IMG/VR virus record: IMGVR_UViG_2851955134_000007
Source of the DNA: a virus
Taxonomy: Duplodnaviria; Heunggongvirae; Uroviricota; Caudoviricetes
DNA: 16,015 bases
Reading direction: 5' to 3' (one strand)
Of the stretch, positions 5,627 to 16,015 are shown piece by piece; position 1 is the first letter of the stretch, and each line of letters opens with the position of its first letter. A program made the position numbers and the translations under genes. A model generated the notes under the pieces. That model was not told the DNA's origin. It searched no databases and saw only the letters and a list, made by a program, of their open reading frames with translations.

Positions 5627-6010
5627 ATGCGTGATATTCAGATGGTTCTTGAGCGTTGGGGAGCGTGGGCGGCTAATAATCATGAAGATGTGACCTGGTC
5701 GTCCATTGCCGCCGGTTTTAAGGGATTAATTACTTCAAAAGTAAAATCTCGCCCGCAATGTTGTGACGATGACGCGATGATCATTTGCGGGTGCATGGCC
5801 CGTCTGAAAAAGAACAACAGCGATTTGCACGATTTATTAGTAGATTATTATGTAGTCGGTATGACATTCATGTCACTGGCAGGTAAGCATTGCTGCTCTG
5901 ATGGTTATATCGGGAAAAGGTTACAGAAGGCTGAGGGCATAATTGAAGGGATGTTAATGGCATTAGATATCCGGTTAGAGATGGATATCGTTGTTAATAA
6001 CTCTAATTAA
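5627..6010 (+). CDS. quuD: Late-gene antiterminator Q, phage-82 type, 127 aa
   Basis: [33 protein letters not shown]... with Cys clusters [13 protein letters not shown] and KHCCSDG. Recognised as DLP12 QuuD. The ORF-track start at 5612 is an upstream extension. Confidence 0.85.
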
Positions 6011-6043
6011 TATGCCAATTGTTTACTAAAAATTATTAAAAAT

Positions 6044-6190
6044 GGGGCGTTGAGACGCCCCCAAAAATAAAGGGTAATATATAACAGAAGGTTTATATAG
6101 TTAGAAGCAAGGTTGTGCTTCTAAAGGAAGTGGCTTGAGGGAGCCACTTATATGTTGGGGAGGCAAAGCCTCCCGCAACATATCTTTTTC
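6044..6190 (+). promoter_or_regulatory. Late-promoter / terminator region between Q and convergent nmpC
   Basis: Four inverted repeats: GGGGCGT-TGAG-ACGCCCC (6044-6061), GAAGCA-AGGTTG-TGCTTC (about 6104-6125), AAGTGGCT-TGAGGG-AGCCACTT (about 6128-6149) and a 34-nt near-palindrome (6150-6183) followed by CTTTTTC. Candidate -35 TTGAGA (6050-6055) and -10 TAATAT (6075-6080), spacing not optimal. Confidence 0.4.
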
Positions 6191-6199
6191 GTAATCAGA

Positions 6200-7160
6200 T
6201 TAGAACTGATACACCAGACCTACAGCGACGATGTCGTCGGTATCAATACCAGCTGTTTTGGTAAACTTACTATCGTCAATTAAGTTGATTTTGTAATCAA
6301 CAAAAGTGGACATGTTTTTATTAAAGTAGTAAGTAGCACCGACATCGACATACTTGACTAAGTCTCGGTCACCATGAACACCAAGGTCTTTACCTTTTGA
6401 CTGAAGGTAAGCAACAGATGGTCGCAGACCGAAGTCAAACTGATATTGTGCTACTGCTTCAAAGTTTTGTGCTTTGTTTGCAATATGGTTATTACCAAAA
6501 ACGGTCATATTCTGAGTTTCAGAATATGTGGTAGCCAGATAGATATTGTTCGCATCATATTTCAGGCCTGCAGCCCATACTTCCGCATTTTTGCCGGAGG
6601 CATTGAATTTGCTCTTACCATAGGCGACCTGACCGTCAGTGCGATCTGATTTAGCATAGGTTGCACCCACGCCGAATCCTTCATACTCATAAGTAGTGGA
6701 GAAACCGAAACCATCACCATTGGCTTCAGTTACGTCAGTGCGGTCATTTTTACCCTGATACTGAGCAGCAAAGTTCAGGCCATCGACCAGACCAAAGAAG
6801 TCGTTGTTACGATAGGTTGCAACACCAGTGGTGCGACCAGTCATGAACACATCTGTTTGGGTCCAGGTATCGCCACCGAATTCTGGCAGAACGTCAGTCC
6901 ACGCACCGATGTCGTATGCTACACCGTAGTTACGGCCGTAATCGATTGAGCCGTAGTCACCGAATTTCAGGCCTGCAAATGCAAGACGGGTTTTGTCTTT
7001 GGAGGAACCTTGAGATTCAGCGCGGTTGCCTTTGAATTCATATTCCCACTGACCGAAACCAGTCAGTTGATCGTTGATTTGGGTTTCACCTTTGAAGCCA
7101 AGACGGGCATAAGTAGTATCACCATCATCTGCATCGTTAGATGAAAAGTAGTGCTTGGCA
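6200..7160 (-). pseudogene. nmpC: Porin NmpC (OmpC/OmpD family), 3-prime portion from codon 44 to stop, cut off by IS10
   Basis: Translation ...[42 protein letters not shown]... to C-terminal ...VGLVYQF (terminal Phe typical of outer-membrane beta-barrels). The MRGSLSA start in the ORF track is read-through from the IS10 end, not a real start. Confidence 0.9.
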
Positions 7161-7173
7161 CTGAGAGATCCCC

Positions 7174-8382
7174 TCATAATTTCCCCAAAACGTAACCATG
7201 TGTGAATAGATTTTGAGTAAGCAGGGTTGCAGCCACGAGTGAGTCTTCCCTTGTTATTGTGTAGCCAGAATGCCGCAAAACTTCCATGCCTAAGCGAACT
7301 GTTGAGAGTACGTTTCGATTTCTGACTGTGTTAGCCTGGAAGTGCTTGTCCCAACCTTGTTTCTGAGCATGAACGCCCGCAAGCCAACATGTTAGTTGAA
7401 GCATCAGGGCGATTAGCAGCATGATATCAAAACGCTCTGAGCTGCTCGTTCGGCTATGGCGTAGGCCTAGTCCGTAGGCAGGACTTTTCAAGTCTCGGAA
7501 GGTTTCTTCAATCTGCATTCGCTTCGAATAGATATTAACAAGTTGTTTGGGTGTTCGAATTTCAACAGGTAAGTTAGTTGCTAGAATCCATGGCTCCTTT
7601 GCCGACGCTGAGTAGATTTTAGGTGACGGGTGGTGACAATGAGTCCGTGTCGAGCGCTGATTTTTTCGGCCTTTAGAGCGAGATTTATACAATAGAATTT
7701 GGCATGAGATTGGATTGCTTTTAGTCAGCCTCTTATAGCCTAAAGTCTTTGAGTGACTAGATGACATATCATGTAAGTTGCTGATAGGTTTCCAGTTTTC
7801 CGCTCCTAGGTCTGCATATTGTACTTTTCCTCTTACTCGACTTAACCAGTACCAACCCAGCTTCTCAACGGATTTATACCATGGCACTTTAAAGCCAGCA
7901 TCACTGACAATGAGCGGTGTGGTGTTACTCGGTAGAATGCTCGCAAGGTCGGCTAGAAATTGGTCATGAGCTTTCTTTGAACATTGCTCTGAAAGCGGGA
8001 ACGCTTTCTCATAAAGAGTAACAGAACGACCGTGTAGTGCGACTGAAGCTCGCAATACCATAAGCCGTTTTTGCTCACGGATATCAGACCAGTCAACAAG
8101 TACAATGGGCATCGTATTGCCCGAACAGATAAAGCTAGCATGCCAACGGTATACAGCGAGTCGCTCTTTGTGGAGGTGACGATTACCTAACAATCGGTCG
8201 ATTCGTTTGATGTTATGTTTTGTTCTCGCTTTGGTTGGCAGGTTACGGCCAAGTTCGGTAAGAGTGAGAGTTTTACAGTCAAGTAAGGCGTGGCAAGCCA
8301 ACGTTAAGCTGTTGAGTCGTTTTAAGTGTAATTCGGGGCAGAATTGGTAAAGAGAGTCGTGTAAAATATCGAGTTCGCACAT
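7174..8382 (-). CDS. tnp: IS10 transposase, 402 aa
   Basis: [71 protein letters not shown]... recognised as IS10/Tn10 transposase. Start 108 bp from the outside end, as in IS10. Confidence 0.95.
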
Positions 8383-8443
8383 TTTGTTGTCTGATTATTG
8401 ATTTTTGGCGAAACCATTTGATCATATGACAAGATGTGTATCT
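8375..8443 (+). ncRNA. IS10 RNA-OUT antisense RNA (position by analogy with canonical IS10)
   Basis: Region antisense to the transposase 5-prime end; sequence TCGCACATTTTGTTGTCTGATTATTGATTTTTGGCGAAACCATTTGATCATATGACAAG resembles RNA-OUT as recalled and contains the Dam GATC site. Exact ends not determined from sequence. Confidence 0.45.
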
Positions 8444-8489
8444 ACCTTAACTTAATGATTTTGATAAAAATCATTAGGGGATTCATCAG

Positions 8490-8620
8490 TGCTTGGCATT
8501 AACTTTCCCGTACAGATCCAGCTTGTTACTGTCTTTATTATAAATTTCAGCTGCCTGAGCAGACATCGTCATCAGTACTGATGCAGCTACAGCAGAAATT
8601 GCCACTGTTAATTTTTTCAT
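8490..8620 (-). pseudogene. nmpC: Porin NmpC, 5-prime portion (signal peptide plus first mature residues), separated from the rest by IS10
   Basis: Minus-strand translation MKKLTVAISAVAASVLMTMSAQAAEIYNKDSNKLDLYGKVNAKH: signal peptide with AQA-AE cleavage site. Reading frame joins exactly to the 3-prime portion once IS10 and one repeat copy are removed (1083 nt, 360 codons plus stop). Confidence 0.9.
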
Positions 8621-9208
8621 CGTGAGCCCTTTTTTTTGAACTATTATTAAAAAATGATGTCACTGCGCGATAAATATTCATCTAATCAATGTGATTATTT
8701 CAAGATGTAAGTTTTAGTTTCTCATTTAATTTGTGAAGTAGATCTCTATTTTTATCTGAACTTTTTCTATCGAAACCTATTTATGGCTCTTATTTGAACA
8801 AAAATAAACCTATTAGCTAATTTATATTAATGGCTGTTATTTATGGGGGTTCTATAATTCGGTGGTTTAATTTAAATCAACTAAAAATAACGCCGGAAAT
8901 TATTTATTGGTTATTTGTTGAGGTTTTCTTATATATTTGTGGTGGTGTTTTGAACACTCGGTAGCATTCTCATAAATATCATTCAGTGGTTTACGTACGT
9001 AAAAAATTGGTTATGCTGTTAAGAGTGGTTACTTCGTCACACAGCTTAAACCCGCCGTCGAGCTGGTTTTTCCATTTTTTGAGTCTCGATATTAGCTGAT
9101 AACTCAATACCTGAGTTATTCACTGACTCCGAGTCTGTTACGTTTCTGCTTTTTTGCGATACGTTGTATTCCCTCAATTTACACCCGCTTTGTCTGCGAG
9201 GTGGGGTT

Positions 9209-9424
9209 ATGAAATCCATGGATAAGTTAACAACGGGTGTCGCCTATGGCACCTCAGCAGGTAGTGCCGGTTACTGGTTTTTACAGCTGCTCGATAAAGT
9301 CACGCCCTCACAGTGGGCAGCAATAGGTGTGCTGGGTAGCCTGGTATTTGGCCTGCTGACGTACCTGACAAACCTTTATTTCAAGATTAAAGAAGATAAG
9401 CGCAAGGCTGCGAGAGGTGAATAA
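9209..9424 (+). CDS. essD: Class II holin / pinholin, phage-21 S type, 71 aa with dual start
   Basis: [71 protein letters not shown]; Met1-Lys-Ser-Met4 dual-start motif; GAGGTGGGG RBS. Matches phage 21 S as recalled. Confidence 0.9.
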
Positions 9425-9921
9425 TGCCTCCATCATTACGAAAAGCCGTTGCTGCTGCTATTGGTGGCGGAGCAATTGCTATAGCATCAGTGTTAATCAC
9501 TGGCCCAAGTGGTAACGATGGTCTGGAAGGTGTCAGCTACATACCATACAAAGATATTGTTGGTGTATGGACTGTATGTCACGGGCATACAGGAAAAGAC
9601 ATCATGCTCGGTAAAACGTATACCAAAGCAGAATGCAAAGCCCTCCTGAATAAAGACCTTGCCACGGTCGCCAGACAAATTAACCCGTACATAAAAGTTG
9701 ATATACCGGAAACAACGCGCGGCGCTCTTTACTCGTTCGTTTACAACGTGGGCGCTGGCAATTTCAGAACATCGACGCTTCTTCGCAAAATAAACCAGGG
9801 CGATATCAAAGGCGCATGTGATCAGCTACGTCGCTGGACATATGCTGGCGGTAAGCAATGGAAAGGTCTCATGACTCGTCGTGAGATTGAGCGTGAAATC
9901 TGTTTGTGGGGTCAGCAATGA
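9424..9921 (+). CDS. rrrD: SAR endolysin (T4-lysozyme-like, phage 21 R type), 165 aa
   Basis: N-terminal signal-anchor-release segment [20 protein letters not shown] followed by a lysozyme-like domain. Start overlaps the holin stop (TAATG). Confidence 0.9.
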
Positions 9922-10379
9922 ACAGAGTAACCGCGATTATCTCCGCTCTGGTTATCTGCATCATCGTCTGCCTGTCATGGGCTGTTAATCATTACCGTGA
10001 TAACGCCATTACCTACAAAGCCCAGCGCGACAAAAATGCCAGAGAACTGAAGCTGGCGAACGCGGCAATTACTGACATGCAGATGCGCCAGCGTGATGTT
10101 GCTGCACTGGATGAAAAATACACGAAGGAGTTAGCTAATGCGAAAGCTGAAAATGATGCTCTGCGTGATGATGTTGCCGCTGGTCGTCGTCGGTTGCACA
10201 TCAAAGCAGTCTGTCAGTCAGTGCGTGAAGCCACCACCGCCTCCGGCGTGGATAATGCAGCCTCCCCCCGACTGGCAGACACCGCTGAACGGGATTATTT
10301 CACCCTCAGAGAGAGGCTGATCACTATGCAAAAACAACTGGAAGGAACCCAGAAGTATATTAATGAGCAGTGCAGATAG
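9918..10379 (+). CDS. rzpD: Rz inner-membrane spanin, about 153 aa
   Basis: N-terminal TM helix ([21 protein letters not shown]) then coiled-coil periplasmic region. ATG overlaps the endolysin stop (ATGA). Confidence 0.85.
10138..10320 (+). CDS. rzoD: Rz1 outer-membrane lipoprotein spanin, 60 aa, embedded in Rz in the +1 frame
   Basis: [24 protein letters not shown]... with lipobox LVVVGC and proline-rich region [24 protein letters not shown] 7 nt upstream. Confidence 0.85.
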
Positions 10380-10704: not shown

Positions 10705-11063
10705 CTTATTATCCTGCATTGTTAAAAACGGCAGAATCCTATGTGACAACAATTAAACGATAGTTAAATGGATTGATGAAAATTAAAACTATATAGGTGG
10801 ATGCTCAGCCTATTGGAGGAGGGGGGCACTCAGAATCCTGTGGAATGAAATAAACCGCTCTTTCTGTCCATTACCCTTTTAGCTGCGCTGTATCGTCGCC
10901 GTATTCCCGCATTAACCATGACCGTAGCCCGACGGGGAATTCCTTCTGCGTGAGTGTGCGGGAATAATCAAAAACGATGCACACCGGGTTTTACTGTGCT
11001 GACAGACGCAGGGTTACCCTCATAGTCGCTTTTCCGGTGCGATGGTGGAAGAAACCGGGATGT

Positions 11064-15265: not shown

Positions 15266-16015
15266 ATGGATTATGTTTGCTCCGTAGTTTTCATCTGTCA
15301 ATCATTTGATTTAATTATAAACAGGAGAGTTATCTCGTTCAAAAAAAATTCATTGTTTATTGTAAGCGACAAAATTAGAAGGGAGTTACCAGTATGCCCC
15401 TCTAAACTAAGAATTGTTGATATAGATAAGAAAACATGTTTATCCTTTTTTATCGACGTGAATAATGAGCTGCCTGGCAAATTTACTCTTGATAAGAATG
15501 GCTATATTGCTGAAGAGGAACCTCCATTATCGCTTGTTTTTTCTCTGTTTGAAGGGATTAAAATAGCAGACTCACACTCCCTTTGGTTAAAAGAAAGACT
15601 ATGTATATCCTTACTTGCCATGTTCAAAAAACGCGAAAGTGTAAATTCATTTATACTAACAAATATAAATACATTTACCTGTAAAATTACTGGAATAATC
15701 AGTTTTAATATTGAGCGGCAATGGCATTTAAAAGATATTGCGGAATTAATTTATACGAGTGAAAGTTTAATAAAAAAAAGATTAAGGGATGAAGGAACGT
15801 CATTTACTGAAATATTGAGAGATACTAGGATGAGGTATGCAAAAAAACTCATAACTTCAAACTCTTATTCTATCAATGTCGTAGCCCAGAAATGTGGCTA
15901 TAACAGTACTTCATATTTCATATGTGCATTTAAAGATTATTATGGTGTCACGCCATCTCATTATTTTGAGAAAATAATCGGCGTCACAGATGGAATAAAC
16001 AAAACAATTGACTGA
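15266..16015 (+). CDS. appY: AraC-family transcriptional activator AppY, 249 aa
   Basis: [56 protein letters not shown]... with C-terminal AraC-type HTH ([28 protein letters not shown]). Recognised as E. coli AppY. Very AT-rich gene and upstream region. Confidence 0.9.

Follow-up and report, generated by a model that had tools for sequence, protein, structure and literature searches.

Why is a prophage porin gene interrupted by IS10 at codon 44, and does the interruption record a single event or a site to which the element returns? We addressed these questions in a 16,015-nucleotide stretch of Caudoviricetes DNA (IMG/VR record IMGVR_UViG_2851955134_000007), called the window here. The original prediction held that a complete 1329-bp IS10 with an intact transposase and a 9-bp target duplication lies within nmpC, and coordinates, Pfam and Rfam agree with it. 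With high confidence, we conclude that the window carries a recent cut-and-paste insertion of IS10 that is predicted to null the porin, and that the insertion lies at a preferred target which IS10 uses recurrently.

The inserted element is an ISVsa5-type isoform of IS10, exactly 1329 bp long, with the following parts.

7161..8489, minus strand: complete IS10, inside end at 7161 and outside end at 8489
7161..7183, no strand: inside-end terminal inverted repeat, from comparison of the two IS10 ends
8467..8489, no strand: outside-end terminal inverted repeat, from the same comparison
7174..8382, minus strand: transposase gene, 402 aa, intact, without internal stop
8375..8444, plus strand: RNA-OUT, antisense regulator of transposase translation (Rfam RF00240)

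The left terminus, which is the inside end, begins CTGAGAGATCCCCTCATAATTTCCCC, and the right terminus, which is the outside end, is the reverse complement of CTGATGAATCCCCTAATGATTTT. The end sequences (CTGAGAGATCCCC... and CTGATGAATCCCC...) are the inside and outside termini typical of the family. The inverted repeats are imperfect, with the inside end matching the outside end at positions 1-4, 8-14, 16-17 and 19-22. The transposase, the only one in the element, matches a DDE family (Pfam PF01609, DDE_Tnp_1, 1.5e-24) and is annotated WP_001352368.1 in copies with identical DNA. RNA-OUT lies antisense to the start of the transposase gene, at the element's outside end, and matches its model over the full length (positions 1-70; 97.3 bits vs a gathering score of 41). 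The intact reading frame, ends and RNA-OUT suggest that this copy is transposition-active. At the nucleotide level, it is identical (0 nt different) to copies in E. coli O111:H11 88.0502 and 2017-03-3CC and differs from IS10R of K-12 BM28 at 16 nt (98.8% identity).

The element is flanked by a perfect target duplication.

7152..7160, no strand: left 9-bp copy, TGCTTGGCA, identical to 8490-8498
8490..8498, no strand: right 9-bp copy, TGCTTGGCA, identical to 7152-7160

A repeat search extends the flanking repeat to 11 nt (AGTGCTTGGCA), but the additional AG belongs to IS10, whose final two bases happen to agree with the flank; the true duplication is 9 bp. An exact 9-bp repeat touching both ends of the element has a chance probability of ~4e-6. 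The target consensus of IS10 is NGCTNAGCN, with a relaxed form NPuCNNNGPyN, both quoted in PMC4574204. The window target agrees with the former at 5 of the 6 specified positions, the mismatch being G for A at position 6, and it conforms to the latter. An allelic target found in other strains, TGCTTAGCA, matches the consensus perfectly. Within the porin gene, the insertion site is the best IS10 target; none is better, and the gene holds no other consensus-like site.

How badly is the porin damaged? The insertion leaves two fragments, with a putative terminator beyond the second.

8490..8620, minus strand: porin 5' fragment, with the start codon, a predicted 23-aa signal peptide and the codons up to 44
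6200..7160, minus strand: porin 3' fragment, codons 41/44 to 360 and the stop codon
6044..6061, minus strand: terminator-like G+C-rich hairpin followed by a T run, from a consensus scan, downstream of the porin stop, putative in function

The duplicated bases begin at the third position of codon 41 and end at the second position of codon 44. Interrupted codon 44 takes its missing third base from the start of IS10 and remains CAC (His), and a TGA from the end of the element (8486-8488) closes the 5' reading frame (8486-8620) as a 44-aa peptide. The porin is thus predicted to be a null allele, the 3' part having been cut off from its promoter and signal peptide. A promoter scan of 5900-9300 returned no sigma-70-like sites, a result that is uninformative about the promoter of the porin and about pOUT. 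Excising 7161-8498 in silico, that is, IS10 and one copy of the repeat, restores a single uninterrupted reading frame of 360 codons beginning MKKLTVAIS..., as had been foreseen; the flanking repeats are identical, and the frame carries no additional frameshift. The reconstructed protein matches Pfam Porin_1 over residues 29-360 (1.9e-151), and its closest solved structures are OmpC and OmpK36/37 (1e-137 to 1e-132), members of the 16-strand OmpC/OmpF/PhoE family of general-diffusion porins. Mature solved porin chains align from about residue 24, which places the predicted cleavage site of the signal peptide. Identity to K-12 NmpC, as reconstructed from BM28, is 90.9% at the amino acid level.

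Judged by gene order and similarity, the porin is the nmpC-position gene of a defective DLP12-like lambdoid prophage. In the annotated collinear loci of TUM9803 and BM28, the gene is flanked by quuD and essD and runs on the strand opposite to them, and the prophage is located at argU, with intD adjacent.

1-1164, strand not given: intD, annotation carried over from TUM9803
5627..6010, plus strand: quuD, a Q-type antiterminator and the left neighbour by which the nmpC position is recognised, from TUM9803 annotation through a 99.9% alignment
9209..10379, plus strand: essD-rrrD-rzpD lysis cassette, the right neighbour, from TUM9803 annotation and open reading frames

By annotation carried over from TUM9803, appY lies at the far end of the prophage. 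The quuD and essD neighbours, intD, appY and the DLP12-like character bear out the assignment to prophage nmpC. The porin allele is intact in 36 sequenced lambdoid phages, at up to 98.7% nucleotide identity, and these phage copies are annotated NmpC, OmpD or OmpC.

The insertion had been called recent, and an empty site now dates it. The prophage of TUM9803 aligns collinearly with the window (99.9% identity), and its site is unoccupied, with a single copy of TGCTTGGCA. It differs from the reconstructed window by one synonymous change in 1262 nt around the porin gene, and its intact porin is WP_000737293.1. No complete E. coli genome contains the whole window including IS10. Since a near-isogenic prophage one synonymous base away has an empty site, the insertion is recent; the identical repeats, the intact transposase and RNA-OUT and the lack of any other porin lesion lead to the same conclusion. 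The porin of the source strain is thus predicted to be a recent null allele rather than an old pseudogene. The insertion was also suggested to be potentially reversible, which holds in principle only. Precise excision of IS10 or Tn10 between 9-bp repeats is rare and independent of transposase.

We propose that one copy of IS10 was cut and pasted into the nmpC-type porin of a DLP12-like prophage, a lysogenic-conversion gene with the Q antiterminator on one side and the lysis genes on the other. Transposase would have cut TGCTTGGCA in a 9-bp stagger, and gap repair would have doubled those 9 bp. The porin would thereby have been split at codons 41-44, with the 5' part stopping after 44 codons at the TGA supplied by IS10. 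The position is no accident: the site and its context, AAGTAG-TGCTTRGCA-TTAACTTT, are a preferred target of IS10, probably taken in at least about ten separate events, with the element facing either way, in differing porin alleles and in prophages or islands as well as P1-like plasmids.

Comparison of E. coli genomes supports this repeated use. IS10 lies at the same porin codons in 14 of 5,426 complete genomes: a junction query in the orientation of the window found 6, and a chimeric query in the opposite orientation found 8 more. The site is uninterrupted in about 2488 genomes. The 14 genomes account for 0.2-0.3% of the approximately 6,000 IS10 places in the collection. Beyond complete genomes, IS10 occupies the site in two further P1-like plasmids and in one metagenome contig. 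The exact junction pattern has no match among GTDB species representatives and matches a single metagenome contig (n=1), which carries a P7-type porin.

We read 15 loci, comprising the window, 11 E. coli genome records, the two further plasmids and the metagenome contig. All 15 carry a 1329-bp IS10 with intact transposase and have 9-bp repeats at identical codons. Among them are ten distinct IS10 sequences and three target variants, TGCTTGGCA, TGCTTAGCA and TGCTCTGCA. Whichever variant a locus carries, both flanks have it, which means that the targets were already different when IS10 arrived. The insertions lie in DLP12 at argU, in complete lambdoid prophages, in an IS-rich island, in a fliE-yedK island (both orientations) and in P1/P7-like plasmids (both orientations). 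Except in K-12, the reconstructed porins are intact in the 12 loci tested, at 360, 365 or 371 aa. The loci probably represent at least ten independent insertion events, with possible shared descent for the window and 24A16CRGN010 and for the pairs L006/L007 and L008/L009. The original prediction inferred repeated independent inactivation of the porin from two different elements; the genome comparison extends this, as IS10 itself has struck the same 9 bp many times. As a control, three sites in the same prophage with the perfect consensus GCTNAGC have IS10 in 0, 0 and 4 records; the two unoccupied ones lie at 329 and 4829 of the window. The site with 4 records, and hence with recurrent IS10, is intergenic and lies upstream of iss, where no gene is inactivated. 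Five loci that all shared the orientation of the window had raised the idea of an orientation bias, in which pOUT pointing toward essD-rrrD-rzpD would be selected; we dropped it, since eight opposite-orientation insertions exist.

Why does IS10 recur at this site? One could suppose that recurrence comes mainly from selection, with loss of the prophage porin being advantageous (for example by protecting against a phage or colicin that depends on the porin, or by lowering antibiotic entry) and IS10 being merely the mutagen available at the sole good target. Several carriers are multidrug-resistant clinical strains, among them 24A16CRGN010, whose name possibly denotes carbapenem resistance, and 88COLEC, with mcr-1 next to its porin, and the same gene was lost to IS5 in K-12. 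Moreover, selected IS10 insertions would still pile up at this position without another consensus-like site in the gene. Recurrence at one site therefore cannot by itself separate preference from selection, because the porin gene offers IS10 no better target. However, the BM28 element entered a gene already inactivated by IS5, where porin loss could not be selected, and target preference alone thus suffices for insertion. In addition, about 2488 genomes keep the site and 36 phages keep the gene uninterrupted, and the site upstream of iss is likewise recurrent. We therefore regard selection as the main cause as unlikely. The recurrence is best explained by target preference, and not necessarily by selection against the porin, although selection for porin loss is possible.

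Could a single ancestral insertion instead have been spread as an IS10-porin module by homologous recombination or phage transfer, the window having inherited its copy? The window and 24A16CRGN010 (locus L002) share the orientation and the rarer target variant TGCTTGGCA, their porins are 99.7% identical, and 7.4 kb are collinear at 99.3%. Yet in the gene region the window differs at 1 position from TUM9803, which is empty, and at 12 or more from L002, and the two IS10 copies differ at 4 positions. Across the loci, IS10 lies in either orientation and in three target variants, each of which flanks it on both sides, IS10 itself comes in ten variants, and porin alleles go as low as 81% amino acid identity; this is more than one event can account for. 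We rejected one ancestral event for the whole set on the strength of orientations, targets and alleles; a few pairs may have arisen in this way, and inheritance of the window copy by this route seems improbable. An origin as an artefact is more doubtful by far. Cloned DNA is known to become contaminated with IS10 from the E. coli strains used for cloning. The element might have come from a cloning host during library construction, as in the hopping of IS10 into vectors documented in PMC4574204, or a repeat might have been misplaced in assembly. But the window copy is 16 positions away from the laboratory IS10R of K-12 and identical to copies in wild isolates, the perfect 9-bp duplication signals true transposition rather than misassembly, and the insertion recurs in many independently sequenced long-read genomes. 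Recent transposition into a preferred target is the reading we retain.

What does this mean beyond the window? The insertion is a routine event at a known kind of hotspot, and the known mechanism of IS10 is unchanged by our findings. What is new is that the site is a recurrent IS10 target, one that captures the element repeatedly in natural isolates, a laboratory strain and P1-like plasmids. Because insertion recurs independently here, annotators should not read shared IS10-nmpC junctions as shared ancestry. A literature search on IS10, IS10R, ISVsa5 or Tn10 together with nmpC found two single cases, BM28 and pSvP1, and no description of a hotspot. These published cases are the same phenomenon, and we found no paper linking them. 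A paper on H-NS and transposon capture mentions neither nmpC nor DLP12.

The classical Tn10/IS10 hotspots (NGCTNAGCN) share with this site a symmetric 6-bp core within a 9-bp duplication, reuse of the same phosphodiester bonds and insertion in both orientations. Unlike the classical hotspots, two of the three allelic forms here have imperfect cores (GCTTGGC and GCTCTGC), yet they are taken, whereas two sites with a perfect core elsewhere in this prophage are free of IS10 in 5,426 genomes. Flanking context is implicated because imperfect cores are used while perfect cores nearby are not. We tentatively suggest that AAGTAG-TGCT(T/C)(G/A/T)GCA-TTAACTTT, at codons 41-44 of the phage-borne NmpC/Lc/P7 porins, may rank among the strongest targets that IS10 has naturally in E. 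coli, with a strength that would come from the flanking context and not from the core. Dependence of Tn10/IS10 hotspots on flanking context is credited to Bender and Kleckner 1992 in the passage of PMC10044804 that cites it. For work on how context affects the choice of target by IS10, the porin site is conveniently at hand in nature. If the suggestion is true, it would be a natural substrate for target selection by the Tn10 transpososome, and a predictable, recurrent route of prophage porin loss in IS10-carrying strains.

Among individual cases, the closest is K-12 BM28, whose lineage gained 15 isolated copies of IS10R, one of them at nmpC codon 44 (PMC10044804). Prophage position, codon, orientation, the 1329-bp length and the 9-bp duplication are all shared with the window. 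However, BM28 has the perfect-consensus target TGCTTAGCA in place of TGCTTGGCA, its element is the Tn10-derived IS10R, 16 nt from that of the window, its porin allele is 91% identical and also bears IS5, and the insertion arose in a laboratory K-12 lineage. The P7-type nmpC of pSvP1 (PMC6906374) likewise has IS10 at homologous codons of a phage-borne porin with a 9-bp duplication, but the target is TGCTCTGCA, the porin is ~83% identical, and the carrier is a P1-like phage-plasmid rather than a chromosomal lambdoid prophage. Finally, in nmpC of K-12 DLP12 the same prophage porin is silenced by an insertion sequence, in agreement with the original prediction; the IS5 at the 3' end, stated in PMC11148124, is seen directly in BM28. 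There, however, the element is a different one and lies at the 3' end of nmpC rather than at codon 44, removing the C-terminus of the porin.

A single IS10 copy in the window, at 7161-8489, interrupts a prophage porin gene. Sequence reading and a script place it at exactly 1329 bp between two identical copies of TGCTTGGCA (7152-7160 and 8490-8498), a 9-bp target duplication. A repeat search gives the flanking repeat as 11 nt because the terminal AG of IS10 matches the flank by chance; the duplication proper is 9 bp. The first bases of the element, CTGAGAGATCCCCTCATAATTTCCCC, are its inside end, and its last bases, the reverse complement of CTGATGAATCCCCTAATGATTTT, are its outside end. By its length, ends, transposase, RNA-OUT and target duplication the element is IS10. 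It lies among the following features, with the prophage genes mapped from the annotation of E. coli TUM9803, whose prophage is collinear with the window at 99.9% identity:

1-1164, intD, which adjoins tRNA-Arg in TUM9803
5627-6010, quuD
6200-7160 and 8499-8620, opposite strand, porin gene
7174-8382, minus strand, IS10 transposase ORF, 402 aa, no internal stop, matching DDE transposase family PF01609
8375-8444, plus strand, RNA-OUT, full-length Rfam match, 97 bits
9209-10379, essD-rrrD-rzpD
beyond 10379, iss, nohD and tail-fibre remnants
15266-16015, appY

The layout is that of DLP12, with an nmpC-type prophage porin in the nmpC position. Deleting 7161-8498 leaves one ORF of 360 codons encoding a full-length Porin_1 protein (1.9e-151) that is 90.9% identical to K-12 NmpC, with OmpC and OmpK36/37 as its nearest solved relatives. 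The intact gene occurs in 36 sequenced lambdoid phages at nucleotide identities up to 98.7%. The duplication begins at codon 41 position 3 and stops at codon 44 position 2. The 5' fragment ends ...AAT GCC AAG CAC TGA; the IS10 end supplies the TGA and the final C of codon 44, so that the truncated product is a 44-aa peptide (ORF 8486-8620). The original prediction of a complete IS10 with intact transposase and a 9-bp duplication, splitting an nmpC that is restored when the element and one repeat are removed, is thus confirmed.

The transposase stop overlaps an ATG (TTATGA, 7174-7177) within the inside end, in frame with the 3' porin fragment; the resulting ORF (6200-7177, minus strand) encodes a 325-aa signal-less porin, and the same fusion is expected for every porin-site insertion in this orientation. 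IS10 transposase expression is very low, and the fusion is therefore probably not meaningful. RNA-OUT and its promoter pOUT face out of IS10 toward essD-rrrD-rzpD, about 720 nt away (8375-9424, plus strand), and a plus-strand scan found no terminator-like site between them. Transcription reading through from IS10 might in principle reach the lysis genes, but nothing suggests that this matters, as IS10 is found elsewhere in both orientations equally often.

IS10 has entered this site repeatedly. Among 5,426 complete E. coli genomes, the window's left junction was found in 6 with a 300-nt query spanning it, and the opposite orientation in 8 more records (7 chromosomes and 1 plasmid) with a chimeric query in which IS10 was reversed. 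The uninterrupted site is present in about 2488 of these genomes, and IS10 in 1627, at about 6,054 places. Outside this genome set, IS10 also lies at homologous codons in a P7-type porin gene on two P1-like plasmids, pSvP1 and p204A1-114K, and on one metagenome contig. We read 15 loci: the window, 11 E. coli genome records, the 2 further plasmids and the contig. All have a 1329-bp IS10 with intact transposase and 9-bp repeats at the same codons. The repeat is TGCTTGGCA in 2, TGCTTAGCA in 9 and TGCTCTGCA in 4, and each variant base is found in both copies, which means that the targets were different before IS10 arrived. Orientations divide 7 to 8, and there are 10 distinct IS10 sequences. The hits lie in DLP12 at argU, in complete lambdoid prophages with other immunity regions, in the fliE-yedK island (once per orientation), in an IS-rich island and in P1-like plasmids (both orientations). 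After conservative merging (window with L002, the 24A16CRGN010 locus; L006 with L007; L008 with L009; L012 with L013; L014 with L015), these sequences indicate at least 10 independent events, in line with the repeated inactivation originally proposed. The insertions all appear recent, because removing IS10 from the 12 reconstructed loci restores an intact ORF of 360, 365 or 371 aa in all except K-12; the restored porins are 81% to 100% identical. Only LR-64-1 (L009) among the 15 has non-identical repeats (TGCTTAGCG at 7142-7150 of that locus against TGCTTAGCA), which suggests a somewhat older insertion. In 88COLEC (L011, 8479-14300), the disrupted porin gene in the fliE-yedK island directly adjoins a chromosomal ISApl1-mcr-1-pap2 unit.

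The window's own insertion was predicted to be recent, and the evidence points the same way. TUM9803 has the unoccupied site with a single TGCTTGGCA, and over the 1262-nt gene region it differs from the reconstructed window by one synonymous base at 7142 (TCA versus TCC); the window's repeats are identical, its transposase and RNA-OUT are intact, and there is no secondary lesion. The interrupted porin could instead have been shared with 24A16CRGN010 through recombination, as the two have the same target variant and orientation and are 99.3% identical across 7.4 kb. However, the window is much closer to TUM9803, its gene region differing from the 24A16CRGN010 locus at 12 or more positions as against one, and near their outside ends the two IS10 copies differ at 4 positions. 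The simpler reading is a separate insertion into a TUM9803-like background. The element is unlikely to have jumped in from a cloning host, since it is identical to wild-isolate copies and differs from laboratory IS10R at 16 positions, and the perfect duplication speaks against misassembly. Reversibility of the insertion is theoretical.

The two prophages differ elsewhere. Near 2389-2390 the window lacks about 1.5 kb present in TUM9803 (L001 3391-4877), comprising most of a methyltransferase gene, DUF1317, an exonuclease and a bet remnant, with only 2 nt of microhomology at the junction; this loss is a further step in prophage decay. appY is uninterrupted up to the window's end, whereas in the otherwise near-identical TUM9803 locus (L001 16418-18503) it is broken by an IS3-family element. 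Each strain thus has its own private IS hit here.

Does the recurrence reflect target choice or selection for porin loss? The K-12 derivative BM28 gained 15 isolated IS10R copies over its laboratory history, one of them at nmpC codon 44 (PMC10044804). Its nmpC already carried IS5 at the 3' end, the K-12 lesion named in the original prediction, so selection for porin loss is excluded there and target preference alone is sufficient for a hit. As controls, we searched with composite queries in both orientations for IS10 at three sites of this prophage that match GCTNAGC perfectly:

329, intD, CGCTTAGCC, 0 records with IS10
4829, NinX, TGCTTAGCC, 0 records with IS10
10802-10810, upstream of iss, TGCTCAGCC, 4 records with IS10 (two chromosomes, two plasmids)

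The last site, unoccupied in the window, is thus another position in this prophage module that IS10 hits repeatedly; the occupied copies are in O111:H11 88-19539, O169:H41 2014EL-1345-2 and two plasmids with iss. Reuse of consensus sites is therefore a general IS10 property, and among the four sites examined the porin site is hit most often. Its core is imperfect in two allelic forms, and hits on these fit published work on Tn10, whose targeting depends on the sequence flanking the site (Bender and Kleckner 1992, cited in PMC10044804). Selection may still add to the recurrence; no second good IS10 site exists in the gene, so selection would likewise concentrate hits here. The part of IS10 target choice in the recurrence is at least as large as that of selection. 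Altogether, the original observation is confirmed and its interpretation supported, with target choice and the theoretical nature of reversibility as qualifications.

We found no paper in the literature on IS10 and nmpC that links the known cases or names a hotspot. BM28 has a previously listed IS10 at the same codon as the window, and pSvP1 has IS10 in P7 nmpC with the repeat TGCTCTGCA (PMC6906374) rather than the window's TGCTTGGCA. The window insertion is a fresh instance of this known type of event, and what it adds, a small step, is the insight that IS10 returns again and again to one specific site in phage porin genes.
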